DNA from: Candidatus Nanoarchaeia archaeon
GTDB taxonomy: Archaea; Nanobdellota; Nanobdellia; Woesearchaeales; JAQUVJ01
Assembly (NCBI GenBank): GCA_028693395.1
Contig: JAQUVJ010000003.1
Span: forward strand, 2,298-66,297
Reading direction: 5' to 3'
DNA length: 64,000 nt
Each line of letters starts with the position of its first letter. Within the stretch, counting starts at the first letter, position 1. Of the stretch, positions 1-64,000 are shown piece after piece. The notes below the pieces were generated by a model. It ran no database searches, was not told the DNA's origin, and saw only the letters and a list, made by a program, of their open reading frames with translations. The position numbers and the translations under genes are program-made.

Positions 1-335
1 ACTAAACAAACAGCATGATTCCAAAACAAACCAGAAAAAGTTTTCATTTTAAATTTTGATATTATTTTTGAATCATAATTTCTTTTTTCTAAAAGATGTT
101 TGAGCACAATAGCATTTTCTAAACATCCTAAAGTAACTTTACTAAATATTATTTCATTTGCATTTCTTTTTAAATACATCTGATTAAAATTTAATAAATT
201 TCCTTTTTCATCATATTTTAATTTTTCATATTTATTTTTAGGTTTATTTTTTTTTGCATTTTTTAAATTTTTATTAATCCAATTTATACATTCAAAAAAA
301 TATGTATAATCATTTTCTAAAAAATTATCAACCAT
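1..335 (-). CDS. Transglutaminase-like cysteine protease (lasso-peptide B2 / McjB C-terminal-like, PF13471-like). Partial: the 3' end runs off the left window edge.
   Basis: Not in the ORF track; I translated it by hand. It reads MVDNFLENDYTYFFECINWINKNLKNAKKNKPKNKYEKLKYDEKGNLLNFNQMYLKRNANEIIFSKVTLGCLENAIVLKHLLEKRNYDSKIISKFKMKTFSGLFWNHAVCL with no stop before position 1. The segment GCLENAIVLKHLLEKRNYDSKII...FWNHAVC matches the Cys...(about 35 aa)...HAW pattern of the Transglut_core3 family. Its ATG (333-335) overlaps the stop of the upstream rSAM gene (ATGGTTGA). Confidence 0.55.
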   Translation of the reverse strand, partial: MVDNFLENDYTYFFECINWINKNLKNAKKNKPKNKYEKLKYDEKGNLLNFNQMYLKRNANEIIFSKVTLGCLENAIVLKHLLEKRNYDSKIISKFKMKTFSGLFWNHAVCL

Positions 336-1395
336 TAATAACATCACCTAAATCTTTTTTTATAACACTAAATAATGTTTTATAAAGTTTACAAAATGGC
401 GTTTTTTCTGAAGATCTATTTGTTAAGCTATCGGAATAACATCCTCCATTACAATTATCTAAAAATTCACAACCATTGCATTCTTGATATATTTTTTTAT
501 AATGTACATATTGCTTTTTAATAACATCTGACCTTAATATTTCTTCCAGTTTTGTTTCCAATATATTTCCTAACTTAAAATCATTATTATTTACAAGACG
601 ATTACAAACATATAGATCACCTAAAGAATCTAATGCTAAAAAAGAAAAACAAGATTCACAAGACAATGAACAAACATTACTTCTATTGAATAATAAACTT
701 TCAGTCATTTCTACAAAAGGATTTAAAATAATTCTTTTATCATCATTTTTCCATATTTCATAAAGATTTCTATATATTTCAATAACTTTATCAATATTAA
801 AAGAAAAATTCTTAGAATTTTTACCCATTCTTATATATGGATTTAAATTTGCTTTTTCAGTTATATCAATTAAATTTTCATATAATTTTTCTTCTAATCC
901 AAAAAAACTATCACTAATAACAGATATAGTTGAATAATTTATTTTATAATATTTTAACATATCAATAGCATTCAAAACTTTATCAAAACTTTCATCTCCA
1001 TTTTTAAAAAATCGAAAATTATTATGAATTTCCCTTATTGGTTCTAAACTTATTCCGACTTTCATTTTTGTTAATTCAAAAAGTTTTACAAAATTCTCAT
1101 CAATTAAAGTACCATTTGTTTGTATAGATTGTTTTATATCAGATTTATCAAAATATTTTTTCAAAACCTTATTTGCTTCATAAAAAAAATCATATCCAGC
1201 AAGAGTTGGTTCTCCACCATGCCAAATAATTCCCAATTTTTTTATTCCTACTCTTTTTGATTCACTAAATAATCTATCCAATGTATCTATATTTACAATA
1301 TTATTTTTTCTTGAATCCCTATAACAATACAAACAATCAAGGTTACAATTATCTGTAACATGAATTAAAAAATTTTGTCTATACAGAAAAAACAC
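328..1395 (-). CDS. Radical SAM enzyme with a C-terminal SPASM domain (peptide-modifying / anSME-like maturase)
   Basis: The N-terminal CNLDCLYC is a CX3CX2C radical SAM cluster motif, and HGGEPTL is present. A complete SPASM signature is present: CFSFLALDSLGDLYVC (CX9GX4C), then CNGCEFLDNCNGGC (CX2CX5CX3C), then a later FC. The start is GTG, 3 nt after the stop of the upstream small ORF. There is no N-terminal RRE/PqqD-like extension. Confidence 0.85.
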   Translation of the reverse strand: MFFLYRQNFLIHVTDNCNLDCLYCYRDSRKNNIVNIDTLDRLFSESKRVGIKKLGIIWHGGEPTLAGYDFFYEANKVLKKYFDKSDIKQSIQTNGTLIDENFVKLFELTKMKVGISLEPIREIHNNFRFFKNGDESFDKVLNAIDMLKYYKINYSTISVISDSFFGLEEKLYENLIDITEKANLNPYIRMGKNSKNFSFNIDKVIEIYRNLYEIWKNDDKRIILNPFVEMTESLLFNRSNVCSLSCESCFSFLALDSLGDLYVCNRLVNNNDFKLGNILETKLEEILRSDVIKKQYVHYKKIYQECNGCEFLDNCNGGCYSDSLTNRSSEKTPFCKLYKTLFSVIKKDLGDVING

Positions 1396-59247: not shown

Positions 59248-59892
59248 TTAACAAGACTCAGAATTTCTCCAACAAGCTCTATTAGATTTATAATCACATT
59301 TTTTTCTACAACTATTACATCCAGCCTCCCAATTACAACAACTTCCATTATCACCTTCTGAACAAGTTCCTTCGTTACTTGCAGAATTTTGAGCACAATA
59401 TTCCCAATCACAACACCATAATACATAAAACCATCCACATTTTCTACAAGAAGTCCATCTCGTACTTGGACCTGTGTTTAATGTTTCACAATTAGATCCT
59501 GAAAAACTAGCATAGTCTGATCCTGTTCTTGCATACTGAATTTCTTCTTTTACTAATGATTGAATTTCTCCATTTATCATTTTATATTCAGTATATGATC
59601 TTTTTCTAGCACATTTAACAGCTCCTTCACAACTCCAAGAACCATATTCTCTTAAAAAGACATTTGTTGCAAGTTCATTCGTAAAAATTCTCCATTCATT
59701 TTCACTTTTTGTTGGAACAAATAGAGTATATCCTTGTGAATTTTTATTTTCAACTCCTCTATAAATACTATGCTCATTTATTTGTACAACAGAATCAAAT
59801 GCTACATTATAAAAATCAGCTGAAAATGAAAAATAAAAATTTAATATAAAAATAATACAAAAAAAAATGAAACTTATAGTTGATTTTTTCAT
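59248..59892 (-). CDS. Secreted cysteine-rich protein
   Basis: The signal-like N-terminus is MKKSTISFIFFCIIFILNFYFSFSA. The C-terminal region of about 85 aa is packed with Cys/Trp (CRKCGWFYVLWCCDWEYC...CCNWEAGCNSCRKKC...CWRNSESC) and the protein ends in Cys. Confidence 0.6.
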   Translation of the reverse strand: MKKSTISFIFFCIIFILNFYFSFSADFYNVAFDSVVQINEHSIYRGVENKNSQGYTLFVPTKSENEWRIFTNELATNVFLREYGSWSCEGAVKCARKRSYTEYKMINGEIQSLVKEEIQYARTGSDYASFSGSNCETLNTGPSTRWTSCRKCGWFYVLWCCDWEYCAQNSASNEGTCSEGDNGSCCNWEAGCNSCRKKCDYKSNRACWRNSESC

Positions 59893-60252: not shown

Positions 60253-60426
60253 TTATTTTTCTTCTTTTGAAGAATTATTTTCTTCTACTTCATCTTCTTT
60301 TTTTAATTCTTCATTAAAAACTCTTTTTGCTCTTCCAGCTTCTCTTGCCCATTCAACAACTTTTGGTCCACCAAATAAAAAAACAGCCAAAAGTAATATT
60401 AAAATAATTTCACCAGCTCCAATCAT
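60253..60426 (-). CDS. tatA: Twin-arginine translocase subunit TatA/E
   Basis: Not in the track (57 aa); I translated it by hand as MIGAGEIILILLLAVFLFGGPKVVEWAREAGRAKRVFNEELKKEDEVEENNSSKEEK. It has a TM helix, an FGG hinge and an amphipathic helix. AGGTGATaat precedes the ATG. Confidence 0.7.
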   Translation of the reverse strand: MIGAGEIILILLLAVFLFGGPKVVEWAREAGRAKRVFNEELKKEDEVEENNSSKEEK

Positions 60427-60487: not shown

Positions 60488-61813
60488 TTAATGGTTATTA
60501 CTATAAATTTCAATTTCTTGAGATAATTTATTCATGTATTCTTGAATTTCTTTTTTATGATTTTCGTCATAAAATAAATAATCGTAAAATATATTGTATT
60601 TTATTAGAAAAGGTCTTTGATATATTGTGTTCCCGTCTTTTGTTGGTATTTGATTTTCAAAGTTAAATTTTACTCCTCTTGGTGGAGGTCCTACTTTTTT
60701 TATTATTTCTAATAATTTTTGCATCTCTCTAAAAAAATCATGTTCTAAAACCATGTAAAATTTTGGATTATTATCATAGTTTATTTCAACATAATGTTCA
60801 TTACTATTCAAATTTGAAAATGTATTTTTTAATTTATTTTTGTAACTTCCAATTCCTAAAACAGGATCAACATGTCCAGCCATTGATAATAAATCATTTT
60901 CTGATGTTAAAACCTCATCCATTCCTTTAATAAATTTAAATATTTCAAAATTTTGCATTTTTTTAGATAATTCTTCTTTAAAAAATCTCATAGTTTTTAA
61001 ACTTTTAAATTCCTCTTTTAAAAAATTAGAATCAAATTTATTTATTTGTCCTTCTGATTTTATTTTTAATATTTCAGATAAAGATAAGTATTCTCCTGAT
61101 AAATAAAGACTACTTGTTAAAACATCTTGAATTAAAAATTCATCATATTTTTCTTTATAATCATAATGAGTTTGAACTGTTATTTCATCAGGGTTTAATT
61201 CATATGCTAATTCTAAATCACTTCTTAATATTTTTCTATCATCTTCTTTATCATTTAAAAATCCAATTATATCATATGATACTCTTATATTTCTTTTTTT
61301 TAATTCTTCAGTTATTTTTTTTATTTCTTCAAATGTTGCAGGTATTCTGTTTTGATTTTTTAATGTTTCTTGATCAAATGTTTGAATTCCTATTATTACA
61401 TTGTCAAAATTATATTTCTTAAGAATATCTAATTGTTCCATACTCCAAAATGCTGGATGTAATTCAAATGTTTTTTCTCCTCTTTGTTTAAAATTTGGAA
61501 GAGATGAAAATAGTTTTTCTAATCTTTGTGTATCTAAAAGACTTGGAGTTCCTCCTCCAAAAAACCATGTTTTAATTTCTTTTTTTTCTAAGATATCTTT
61601 ATACATTTCAATTAATTTTGGTAAATATTTGTCATAATATCTTTCATATTCTTGCTGATTAAACAAAGTTCCTTTATAATAACAGAATTTACAGATAGAT
61701 TTACAAAATGGACTATGAATATAAACATTAATAGGTTTATTTACATTTTCCCATTTCTCTTCTATTTCTTCAAAAGAAATTTCTCTATATATTTCTGAAA
61801 ATTTTTTTGTCAT
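60488..61813 (-). CDS. HemN-like radical SAM enzyme (class C / coproporphyrinogen oxidase-like family)
   Basis: VYIHSPFCKSICKFCYY carries the CX3CX2C motif in the HemN IHIPFC context. FFGGGTPSLL and GIQTFD are present. Confidence 0.8.
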   Translation of the reverse strand: MTKKFSEIYREISFEEIEEKWENVNKPINVYIHSPFCKSICKFCYYKGTLFNQQEYERYYDKYLPKLIEMYKDILEKKEIKTWFFGGGTPSLLDTQRLEKLFSSLPNFKQRGEKTFELHPAFWSMEQLDILKKYNFDNVIIGIQTFDQETLKNQNRIPATFEEIKKITEELKKRNIRVSYDIIGFLNDKEDDRKILRSDLELAYELNPDEITVQTHYDYKEKYDEFLIQDVLTSSLYLSGEYLSLSEILKIKSEGQINKFDSNFLKEEFKSLKTMRFFKEELSKKMQNFEIFKFIKGMDEVLTSENDLLSMAGHVDPVLGIGSYKNKLKNTFSNLNSNEHYVEINYDNNPKFYMVLEHDFFREMQKLLEIIKKVGPPPRGVKFNFENQIPTKDGNTIYQRPFLIKYNIFYDYLFYDENHKKEIQEYMNKLSQEIEIYSNNH

Positions 61814-61827
61814 TTTTTATTTTAGTT

Positions 61828-62841
61828 TTATTTTTTTATTAATGAATCTTTAAATTTTTTCATTTGTTCTTCTGTTGCTGAATTTAATTCTTCATATCCA
61901 TAATCCCAAGGAGCACACATTCCTTTTAATGTGTCTGATTTTATTTTTGGTCTAAATGGTTGATTTGTTTTACATTGTCTACATCTTTCTACTGCTGAAC
62001 TACAATCAATTACTGAAAAATGGTAACCTTTATTTATTACTTCTTCCATTATATCATAGACTAAACCTTCATCATACATATGATAAAAATGGTCTTTATA
62101 TGCTCTCCATTTATCTTCTGGATAACATTTTTCAATTGCATCTCTATTATAATCTGAAATTTGAACTTCAACCATATCTAAATGTTTTAATCCTATTTTT
62201 TCAAAAAATGGTAATAATTCCATTATTTCTTCACGATGATGTGGCCATGATGGTTCTTCAACTGTTACAAAAAATCCCATTTCTTTTGCTAATTCCATAT
62301 TTTTTAATACTAATTTAGAAAAATTTGAAGCACTTAAATGAAATCTTATTTCATGAACACCTAAATTTTCTTTAAGTCTAATTAACATTTCTTTATTTGC
62401 TAATATTCCATTTGTATACAAAAAACGATATTGATGAATTCCTGTTTGTTTTTCCATATTATCTAAAATTAATGCTATTTTTTCTAATTCATTAATGTAA
62501 TACAATGTTTCTCCAGAACTTTGATATGAAAATGTTGTTGCTTTATATTGTTCTGGTCTTAAACTTTGGTAAAAGAAATCTGAAATTTTATTTTTTATTG
62601 AATCTGCTGATTCTTCTAATCTATTTGGATCGTAATAACAATAAGGACATTTACACATGCATTGTGTTCCTATTTGGATTCCTGAACCAGGTTCTTGAGT
62701 AAAACACATTCTACAACCTGGTGATATTTCTCCAACATGAAAACAATGGCCATCAGCATCTCTTTTTGCTCCCATTTTTAATAATTTTTCTTGTCTTGCT
62801 AATTTTTCTTGCATTATTTCTTGATATGGAACGACTCTCAT
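61828..62841 (-). CDS. Radical SAM protein (PFL-activase-related, COG2108-like) with an extra N-terminal Cys cluster
   Basis: GTQCMCKCPYCYY contains CX3CX2C. An upstream CFHVGEISPGCRMCF is present. C-terminal Cys residues occur in IDCSSAVERCRQC. The composition is less Lys/Asn-biased than the neighbouring genes. Confidence 0.7.
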   Translation of the reverse strand: MRVVPYQEIMQEKLARQEKLLKMGAKRDADGHCFHVGEISPGCRMCFTQEPGSGIQIGTQCMCKCPYCYYDPNRLEESADSIKNKISDFFYQSLRPEQYKATTFSYQSSGETLYYINELEKIALILDNMEKQTGIHQYRFLYTNGILANKEMLIRLKENLGVHEIRFHLSASNFSKLVLKNMELAKEMGFFVTVEEPSWPHHREEIMELLPFFEKIGLKHLDMVEVQISDYNRDAIEKCYPEDKWRAYKDHFYHMYDEGLVYDIMEEVINKGYHFSVIDCSSAVERCRQCKTNQPFRPKIKSDTLKGMCAPWDYGYEELNSATEEQMKKFKDSLIKK

Positions 62842-62909
62842 TTTTATCTCTCTTTAAAATTATCTTTTTTAATTTAAATGTTTTGATAAATTTAACTTAT
62901 AAAATTTCA

Positions 62910-64000
62910 TTAATTGTATATCATATGAACACAATTAGAAATTTCTTTATATAATACATTTATTCTTTCTAATATCTCAAAATTATTTGGATTTTCTTTT
63001 TCATAATATTTTAATAATTTCAATAACTTTTTTAATGTTTCATTTTTACCATAATTTATATCAAAATTTTTATTTTCTATTGATTTTATTGAGAATTTTT
63101 CATAATTTTTTTCAATATATGATTTTGGTGAAATAAAATAATCATAAAATTCAAATGAAATATTGCTAAAATCTTTATTTATTTTTTTTAAAAATTTTAA
63201 TTCTTCATAAAATATTTCTATTGTTTGACTTGGAATTCCAACTATATAAAATAATTTTACACTAATTTTTTGTTTATTTAATTCTTTTAATAAACTATAA
63301 ATTATTTTCAAAGATGGCATCTTTTTGTTAATATTTTTTGATAATGTTGGATGTAAACACTCAATACCAAATGCAACATTATTAAAACCTGCTTTTTTCA
63401 TTTTTTTTACTTGTTCAATTGTTAAACCATCAAAAGCTAAATCAGAATTTTGAATTTTTATTTTATTATTTATTTTTATTAAACCATCTAATAATTTATC
63501 AAATTCAAATTTATTTAATGTAGAATCATTAAATCTAATACTTTTTACACCTATTTGATTATAATATTTAAACCATTCAATTAAAACATCTCTTTTTAAT
63601 AAATTATATCTTGAAAGTGCTGGACTACTACAAAAATAACAATTATTAGCACAACCTCTTGATGATGATATCATAATATTATAATTTAAATATTCTAACT
63701 CATCTTTACTATATTTTGGTACATCATCTTTTGTTAATTTTGATAAATTATAAAAATGATTTGAATTATAAAATTCCTTTTCATTAATTAATAATTGATA
63801 CAAAGACTCTTCAAAATCTCCTCTTGTACAATAAAAACCCATTGATTTTAATGATTCATATGTAAAATCATTTAAAATTACTTCAGGGCCTCCAAAAGTT
63901 ATTTTTGAATTTGGGTATTTTTCTTTTAAAAAAAGTGCAATTATTGGTTGTATTGACAAATAAGCATCATAAAGAGAAAAACAATAAATATCATATCCTT
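62910..64000 (-). CDS. Cobalamin-binding (class B) radical SAM enzyme. Partial: the 5' end runs off the right window edge.
   Basis: SSSRGCANNCYFCSSP is a CX3CX2C motif. The track start at 63959 is TTG. The frame stays open upstream to the window end and reads GYDIYCFSLYDAYLSIQPIIALFLKEKYPNSKITFGGPEV, which is typical of a B12-binding domain. Confidence 0.75.
   Translation of the reverse strand, partial: GYDIYCFSLYDAYLSIQPIIALFLKEKYPNSKITFGGPEVILNDFTYESLKSMGFYCTRGDFEESLYQLLINEKEFYNSNHFYNLSKLTKDDVPKYSKDELEYLNYNIMISSSRGCANNCYFCSSPALSRYNLLKRDVLIEWFKYYNQIGVKSIRFNDSTLNKFEFDKLLDGLIKINNKIKIQNSDLAFDGLTIEQVKKMKKAGFNNVAFGIECLHPTLSKNINKKMPSLKIIYSLLKELNKQKISVKLFYIVGIPSQTIEIFYEELKFLKKINKDFSNISFEFYDYFISPKSYIEKNYEKFSIKSIENKNFDINYGKNETLKKLLKLLKYYEKENPNNFEILERINVLYKEISNCVHMIYN

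Follow-up and report, generated by a model that had tools for sequence, protein, structure and literature searches.

What would a DPANN archaeon do with a run of radical S-adenosylmethionine (SAM) enzymes of different classes, and on what substrate would they act? The question is raised by the right edge of a 64,000-nucleotide (nt) stretch of DNA from a Candidatus Nanoarchaeia archaeon, referred to here as the window (positions 2298-66297 of contig C8, JAQUVJ010000003.1; GenBank assembly GCA_028693395.1, 1.12 Mb in 48 contigs, GC content 21%). Three consecutive minus-strand genes at this edge each encode a CX3CX2C motif (CKSICKFC, CMCKCPYC and CANNCYFC) and are separated by gaps of 14 nt and 68 nt, the same values as had been read in the original prediction made from the window. 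Contig C8 extends 2.1 kb past the window (locus L001; a window coordinate equals the L001 coordinate plus 55702), and following it to the right, as that prediction had proposed, yielded a candidate substrate, a Cys-repeat open reading frame (ORF), and placed the operon start beyond position 64000. We consider it probable that the three genes are the downstream half of an operon that cross-links this Cys-repeat protein as a fibre part, and that the operon is an archaeal copy of a phage cassette.

The cluster lies on one strand, and its operon would read, from the contig end, Cys-repeat protein, famA, class-B-like enzyme, famB, HemN-like enzyme and TatA. Intergenic gaps are 5 nt between the Cys-repeat and famA genes, 1 nt between famA and the class-B-like gene, the 68 and 14 nt already mentioned on either side of famB, and 61 nt between the HemN-like and TatA genes. 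The trio of radical SAM genes is thus present in the window, but a fourth (famA) starts 1 nt upstream, past the edge, so that the count of three is an artefact of where the window ends. The features are, with amino acids abbreviated as aa:

60253..60426, minus strand: TatA/E-type translocase subunit, 57 aa (Pfam TatA_B_E), closing the cluster
60488..61813, minus strand: HemN-like radical SAM enzyme, 441 aa, putative optional tailoring enzyme (CKSICKFC)
61828..62841, minus strand: famB radical SAM enzyme (CMCKCPYC), 337 aa, with an additional set of conserved Cys
62910..64000, minus strand: class-B-like radical SAM enzyme, C-terminal 362 codons in the window (CANNCYFC)
up to window-equivalent 64271 (L001 7208-8569), minus strand: full gene of the class-B-like enzyme, 453 aa
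window-equivalent 64273-65160 (L001 8571-9458; C8 66570-67457), minus strand, outside the window: famA radical SAM enzyme, 295 aa
window-equivalent 65166-66110 (L001 9464-10408; C8 67463-68407), minus strand, outside the window: Cys-repeat protein, truncated where the contig stops, at least 314 aa

The Cys-repeat ORF encodes 59 Cys residues (19%) in its at least 314 aa, with 23 exact C-x-C-x-x-R motifs in approximately 24 repeats spaced 6-11 residues apart. It matched no Pfam or NCBIfam model, has no paralog in its own genome, where it is unique, and was not found in 40 genomes of the same order. It nevertheless belongs to a family: a word-based search identified 16 homologs, and a profile search of 1.84 billion representative clusters identified 160 at an E-value of 1e-3, 114 at 1e-10 and 50 at 1e-30. 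Family members share a conserved N-terminal domain of ~85 aa, followed by variable repeats and a 'CxCNxxxxF' end, and the consensus derived from 503 repeats is C-[SDT]-C-[NVDQ]-[SGTA]-R(70%)-T(43%). Approximately 30 N-terminal residues are absent from our ORF relative to the copy at L174, the locus of a related archaeon described below. In the AlphaFold 2 (AF2) model two helices at the N-terminus are confident, and each repeat has one short strand. At one locus, L177 (5705-6508), the repeat protein has 46 Cys and 21 repeats and carries DGxWK-type repeats instead of the usual N-terminal domain; the gene directly before it encodes a DUF4376 domain.

To place the cluster in context, loci were gathered by exact look-up and by searching viral, genome and metagenome collections with a famA profile, giving 46 distinct groups; the denominators reported here are the loci with enough flanking sequence. 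The Cys-repeat protein adjoins famA in 35 of 35 loci, and a further radical SAM enzyme, the PapB-like, SPASM-containing famC, is present in 38 of 38. In 28 of 32 there is also a tail-fibre gene whose product has a conserved C-terminal domain of ~70 aa (TFC), and the phage cassette runs in the order TFC tail-fibre gene, famC, Cys-repeat protein, famA. Nearly all of these loci are phage tail/baseplate modules or Bacillota prophages. At L093 (Thermoanaerobacterales), for example, genes for a tape measure, a LysM protein, a tail protein and two baseplate wedge proteins lead into the cassette (TFC, famC, Cys-repeat protein, famA), which is followed by an amidase endolysin; other loci have genes for gp25, Dit, YomG_N, an M23 peptidase or an integrase, or for PolB with ligases, their contigs measuring 49-235 kb. 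Only five cellular genomes among 185,579 species representatives carry the cassette, all of them Clostridia-type Bacillota and one of them the isolate Dethiothermospora halolimnae SD1 (L097). The identifiable hosts, as Clostridia-type Bacillota, are presumably anaerobes.

The three window genes recur in related cassettes as optional members and are syntenic with each other elsewhere, which bears out the view that they belong to a single dedicated multi-step system. Orthologs of famB (39-74% identity) occur in 13 of 29 cassettes, full-length HemN-like homologs (327-375 aa) follow famA in 11 of 29, and four of the contexts examined for the class-B-like enzyme are CxCxxR cassettes (our own, L174, L126 and L177). 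The original prediction had named as its refutation three genes that are not syntenic and that each cluster with a housekeeping family; we found instead that none of the three reaches a housekeeping equivalog cut-off and that each falls in a subfamily linked to the cassette. The view from which that prediction was made did not take in the phage tail-fibre origin, a fourth and probably a fifth enzyme, or the membership of TatA. No named phage in the GenBank phage collection carries the cassette: tblastn with famA returned distant radical SAM matches only (at most 38% identity over partial length), and an exact look-up of the famA sequence found no further record. In a quick famA tree our sequence paired with that of L010 (GC 0.25) with a Shimodaira-Hasegawa-like approximate likelihood ratio (SH-aLRT) support of 84, within a group of poor resolution in which Bacillota prophages are found as well. 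In the literature we found no report tying radical SAM or SPASM enzymes, or enzymatic covalent cross-linking, to tail fibres.

The enzymes that accompany the repeat protein most constantly are related to maturases of Cys-rich substrates. At related loci famC aligns with the whole PapB model (positions 4-327 of 330) at 175-209 bits against a cut-off of 340, and its next-best families are the SCIFF, CXXX-repeat, QhpD and CcpM maturases, all of which act on Cys-rich peptides or proteins. Its SAM-cluster motif begins at about residue 20, it shows a CxxxxxC...CxxC auxiliary-cluster pattern, and it scores 82.8-87.8 bits against TIGR04463, short of the cut-off of 525. The best NCBIfam match of famA is likewise PapB (NF047865; 114.6 bits against 340), covering its N-terminal 205 residues (model positions 7-209), and its best match in the Protein Data Bank (PDB) is the SCIFF maturase CteB (5WGG, 1e-18). 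As only the three Cys of the SAM cluster are invariant across 7 orthologs, famA lacks a SPASM domain and auxiliary cluster.

Several features of these genes vary among loci. Three famC genes are enlarged to 601-774 aa (L011:4182-6386, L012:1498-3303 and L019:5084-7408), and weak Pfam Intein_splicing matches in the L011 and L012 copies, with a LAGLIDADG match in L011 as well, suggest that inteins are inserted in these two. Small acidic proteins of 84-119 aa are encoded at L011:6392-6646, L003:6032-6391 and L005:8167-8427, with 'NPxNPxCLCD' and CxCxNRGG-type motifs followed by an amphipathic helix. Equivalent tails are fused to famC or famA, the famC tails being those of L174 (5350-6801), L010 and L007. 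In their motifs these proteins and tails resemble miniature substrate repeats, and they may be second substrates or recognition elements.

The three window enzymes are more divergent, and the classes assigned to them in the original prediction hold in part. The class-B-like enzyme has a radical SAM core (Pfam Radical_SAM, 65.2 bits for the part in the window; PF04055, 64.3 bits for the full-length protein, residues 201-361) that follows a putative B12 region, and its best NCBIfam matches are B12-dependent radical SAM families (PhpK, for example, at 67 bits against a cut-off of 600). Core and domain order thus fit class B, but the B12-binding domain itself (PF02310, residues 92-160) is below threshold at 12.7 bits against 32.1 (E-value 0.12); among homologs, it reaches an E-value of 0.012 at L126 and has no match at L174. 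The subfamily is small, with 6 members in 5.8 billion clusters.

For famB, a relationship to pyruvate formate-lyase activase had been suggested, and no activase appeared among its NCBIfam matches, in a PDB sequence search (which gave no match at all) or in its Foldseek top 50. Pfam Radical_SAM scores 19.8 bits, under the gathering score. The AF2 model is confident (pLDDT, the predicted local distance difference test, 84.8; predicted template modelling (TM) score 0.85), and its top Foldseek matches are radical SAM folds only: the top 50 hold NifB, BlsE, HydE, MoaA and CteB, at TM-scores of approximately 0.45-0.48, together with viperin and anSME. In the ortholog alignment C43 and C46 (GCRxCF), the SAM-cluster residues C61, C65 and C68, and C280 are invariant, and C287 is nearly so.

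The HemN-like enzyme has a HemN-type core, as had been proposed, but falls outside the curated class C families. Pfam Radical_SAM scores 81.2 bits, and the best NCBIfam matches, to HemN, HemZ, HemW and ChuW models, lie at ~76-93 bits against cut-offs of 205-597; none is reached (HemN 88.6 against 325, HemW 76.2 against 205, ChuW 77 against 400). The best PDB matches are HemN 1OLT (8e-14, residues 4-213) and NocN (4e-8). HemN_C (PF06969) gave no match even at E-values up to 5, the C-terminal 220 residues being conserved instead inside a separate family of ~415-440 aa (101 matches), and assignment to the methyltransferases is unsupported. This family is broad and is also found outside the cassette. 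One such member, at L175:8001-10244, is 40% identical to the window enzyme and lies in a 201-kb phage contig, where it adjoins a GP38-like, Cys-free, Gly-rich adhesin and a Peptidase_S74 fibre. From this placement, the HemN-like family may act on fibre tips more widely.

Contig C8 is archaeal in content, encoding S13_N/S15, STT3/AglB, SRP54, SecD/F, prefoldin and UPF0147, and the genome carries S28e. The only ribosomal RNA (rRNA) found in a search for small-subunit (SSU) rRNA lies on contig C11 (2842 bp, GC 0.51) and is bacterial (SSU 1025 bits, large subunit (LSU) 1087 bits), which shows that C11 contaminates the archaeal bin; GC is 0.38-0.53 in several further short contigs of the assembly. 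Within the order, famA occurs in our genome and in none of 400 relatives (1 of 401), which points to a recent acquisition.

A full island is present at L174, an independent assembly from another sample and from a related DPANN archaeon. Its flanking genes, Dph5 (253 bits) and a tRNA methyltransferase, are 77% and 68% identical to genes of contig C46 of our own assembly. The island comprises, in order, the class-B-like enzyme, a protein with a Sec signal, a 58-aa ORF, TatC (105 bits), a stand-alone TFC protein of 102 aa, famC, the Cys-repeat protein with its full N-terminus, famA, famB, the HemN-like enzyme and TatA. Identity to our proteins is 77% for famA, 74% for famB, 61% for the HemN-like enzyme, 57% for TatA and 55% for the class-B-like enzyme. 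Our TatA (Pfam TatA_B_E, 39 bits against a cut-off of 21) lies 61 nt 3' of the HemN-like gene and the L174 TatA lies in the same place, 55 nt after it; given that the ortholog ends the L174 island at the same position, our TatA belongs to the cluster. Among cassette loci, Tat (twin-arginine translocation) genes are found only in these two archaeal ones. The two islands occupy different chromosomal places, and joining C46 to the end of C8 by L174 synteny was rejected, as unrelated genes lie beside Dph5 on C46. Orthologs of TFC, TatC, tail-fibre and baseplate proteins were not found by tblastn of our genome.

Two of the additional L174 genes have features of exported proteins. The 58-aa ORF (L174:4091-4267, plus strand), which precedes TatC, has 'SKKDFLK' and then a 12-residue hydrophobic stretch, with Lys-Lys in place of the Arg-Arg of a Tat-like signal; it could be a small cargo or a piggy-back carrier. 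The 223-aa protein (L174:3405-4076, plus strand) combines a Sec-type signal peptide with two phage-fibre 'LDADLLDG' motifs, which suggests a fibre shaft piece secreted separately. No homolog of the former was found in our genome, and none of the latter in our assembly.

We propose that famC, which together with TFC and TatC is assumed to lie just past the contig end in our genome, would turn the repeat Cys into thioether staples of the ranthionine type, one or two per repeat. The famA enzyme, with no auxiliary cluster, would perform a companion step distinct from that of famC, and the modifications made by the famB, HemN-like and class-B-like enzymes, possibly C-methylations or additional links, would differ between lineages. 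The resulting rod or ribbon of short beta-strands would stay folded under reducing conditions and, in partnership with the TFC domain of the fibre, serve as a distal piece of the fibre or as part of an adhesin. The fixed position of the gene after the TFC fibre gene suggests docking of the N-terminal domain on TFC, with the stapled repeats lying distally. Clostridia-type, presumably anaerobic hosts would fit both oxygen-sensitive enzymes and a need for cross-links other than disulfides. In our archaeon and that of L174 the system would stand alone as an island equipped with TatA and TatC, and the protein, having been cross-linked in the cytoplasm, would leave the cell in folded form. In its widest form the proposal is that anaerobe phages build a tail-fibre part from a Cys-repeat protein stapled by up to five radical SAM enzymes, and that a DPANN archaeon captured this kit and exports the product via Tat as a cell-surface fibre, perhaps for host attachment. 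We regard this wider scenario as tentative and, taken whole, rather doubtful.

Maturation of a Cys-rich protein by radical SAM enzymes is already known; what is new is the repeat family, the multi-enzyme set, the placement among tail-fibre genes and the Tat-linked island in archaea. The closest characterised analogue is the Crp system of Methanococcus voltae, made up of CrpA, CrpB and the SPASM radical SAM enzyme CrpC (Dieter et al. 2026, PMC13692751). There CrpA, a Cys-repeat protein of 29 kDa, receives ranthionine thioethers from CrpC, with Cys placed ahead of the acceptor residue. Through this precedent, such enzymes are known to be able to act on a 29-kDa repeat protein. Both systems pair a protein-sized, Cys-rich repeat substrate (here a candidate) and its leader-like N-terminal domain with a SPASM radical SAM neighbour, and the CrpA repeat region is also of low confidence in AlphaFold prediction. 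The Crp-type combination of a Cys-rich repeat protein longer than 100 aa, a leader-like N-terminus and a SPASM neighbour is found in the cassette at related loci; the SPASM partner is not seen in our own genome because the contig ends. The two systems differ, however, in several respects. CrpC falls in TIGR04463, for which famC scores 82-88 bits against 525; the CrpA repeat has 17 residues and CxxQ/D motifs, whereas here it is CxCxxR(T); one enzyme (CrpC) compares with two to five here; famC has no N-terminal extension resembling a RiPP recognition element (RiPP, peptide synthesized by the ribosome and modified post-translationally); and Crp has neither a phage tail-fibre context nor Tat genes.

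The PapB/freyrasin, CteB, CXXX-repeat and QhpD systems supply the best matches for full-length famC and the famA core, and their enzymes turn several repeated Cys motifs of one substrate into thioethers. In contrast to these, the cassette enzymes score 115-209 bits against the equivalog cut-off of 340, famA is without SPASM, the motif is not CX3D/E, the setting is a phage tail module, and the predicted substrate, at 190-530 aa and 16-81 Cys, is a protein rather than a short peptide. The HemN-like and class-B-like enzymes resemble the NocN, TbtI and PoyC type in domain order, in the NocN match given above and in an accessory place beside a core maturase, and TIGR03975 ('RiPP maturation radical SAM C-methyltransferase') matches at 42-43 bits; they differ from this type in having no HemN_C, a sub-threshold B12-binding region and no curated cut-off reached, and by this analogy methyl transfer is a guess. 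On the structural side, the genes follow directly on a fibre gene in the baseplate-lysis interval, as do those of T4 gp37/gp38 and lambda Stf/Tfa, and what varies is the downstream partner of a conserved C-terminal domain of the fibre; in contrast, the papers found report neither radical SAM enzymes nor enzymatic covalent cross-linking for a fibre partner.

Several of our observations weigh against the stapled-fibre proposal. The repeats are not of the CX3D/E form, D/E at +4 not being conserved, and Thr at +4 from the second repeat Cys is present in 43% only; famA is without the auxiliary cluster used by known thioether synthases, and tblastn of the contigs of this genome found no famC ortholog. 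The AF2 model of the Cys-repeat protein, a putative virion component, is weak (mean pLDDT 56), and a Foldseek search with it returned zero matches. With regard to the archaeal half of the proposal, the metagenome-assembled genome is 88% complete and holds phage and bacterial foreign contigs, TatC is absent from this assembly, and the Cys-repeat and TFC proteins of L174 both lack the Arg pair of a twin-arginine signal (S/T-R-R-x-F-L-K), so that piggy-back export or another cargo is possible. The ratios of nonsynonymous to synonymous substitution (dN/dS) between our genes and those of L174, 0.15-0.52 for all six shared genes, are rough, given that dS is probably saturated.

Other explanations share part of this evidence. 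A leader-like conserved N-terminus, repeated cores and PapB-, SCIFF- or CcpM-like maturases are also the layout of a RiPP, small CxC-bearing proteins or tails accompany famC, and multi-core precursors are known in other RiPP classes. The repeat protein could accordingly be read as a multi-core precursor that is cross-linked, cut to small thioether peptides and released, by the phage or (via Tat) by the archaeon, as a diffusible bacteriocin- or signal-like product. We think this unlikely: the cassette is always in the tail-fibre slot, from baseplate to lysis genes, beside a fibre with a dedicated C-terminal domain; there is no conserved cleavage motif between repeats; the L177 variant has its leader replaced by a DGxWK-type N-terminus; and no protease or ABC exporter was noticed among the called genes of the loci read, which were not scanned systematically for them. 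With its 19% Cys in regular CxC pairs, the protein might alternatively be a metal or iron-sulfur scaffold, in which pairs of several chains bind metal ions along a fibre or serve as a cluster store for the enzymes, with no modification of the protein at all. CrpA is a suspected metal binder, and in T4 gp37 the fibre repeats are metal-binding, with His pairs that bind iron at the tip. Plain metal binding, however, has no need of strict co-occurrence with two to five peptide-maturase-type radical SAM enzymes, the families nearest famC all modify Cys-rich targets, and Arg and Thr are conserved in the repeat beside Cys. A scaffold in place of a substrate is therefore quite unlikely in our estimation, and the two ideas are compatible with each other.

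That the archaeal cluster has no cell function, being a decaying provirus remnant or a chimeric phage-archaeal join in which the enzymes are leftovers, is a very unlikely reading. The cassette stops at a contig break, phage contigs of similar GC are in the bin, famA pairs with L010 near Bacillota prophages, and its single occurrence among 401 genomes of the order would also fit such a join. Against this, five ORFs are complete and intact, the repeat ORF is open to the contig end, spacing is tight, and L174 independently joins the same genes to archaeal Dph5 together with TatC and TatA. The dN/dS values, with the caveat given above, argue against decay, and fibre and baseplate queries found no other phage structural genes in our genome. 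Taken together, the L174 upstream flank and our downstream flank leave approximately 10 kb, which is too small for a provirus. Least probable of all, and in our view extremely unlikely, is that independent housekeeping enzymes (a HemW-type chaperone, a tRNA/rRNA modifier and a cofactor or lipid methylase) stand side by side by chance. Its basis is a set of weak resemblances, to HemW at 76 bits and to HpnJ and 'lipid B12' models at 46-53 bits, all far under the curated cut-offs. For all three enzymes the nearest relatives are linked to the cassette (in the case of the HemN-like enzyme the one in L174, its wider family also occurring elsewhere), and gene order is kept with L174. A housekeeping HemW/HemN role was rejected by cut-offs and synteny. 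The comparison with archaeal lipid enzymes suggested in the original prediction gave a 'lipid biosynthesis B12/rSAM' match of 53 bits against a cut-off of 360; as this is the sole lipid-type match and no lipid genes lie beside the cassette in 46 loci, a lipid or cofactor role was also rejected.

If radical SAM enzymes do mature the repeat protein, RiPP-type chemistry would extend from small peptides to viral structural proteins; among proteins, only QHNDH, MCR, a ribosomal protein and CrpA have so far been cited as carrying modifications of the RiPP kind. Thioethers would then be a concrete answer to how extracellular proteins are stabilized where disulfides, which they would replace, are reduced. 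Under the wider scenario, no virion or surface fibre of such a kind would have been known before to be cross-linked by enzymes, and a receptor-binding module would have been domesticated from phage to archaeon. The islands are a rare documented acquisition by DPANN archaea of a phage-type module coupled to Tat export. The unannotated triad of TFC domain, CxCxxR protein and famA/famC can serve as a marker, in metagenomes, for the tail-fibre modules of jumbo phages and of phages of anaerobes. A cultured host of a prophage cassette exists in D. halolimnae SD1, making the proposal directly testable.

Two further genes of the window were noted. At 59248-59892 (minus strand), three genes away from the cluster, a 214-aa protein with no Pfam or NCBIfam match and no CxCxxR repeats is encoded; its N-terminus resembles a signal sequence, and its C-terminal part is dense in Cys and Trp. 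At the far end, positions 328-1395 (minus strand) encode a further radical SAM ORF of 355 aa with weak tblastn matches (22-37% identity) to famA and famC, which appears unrelated to the cassette.

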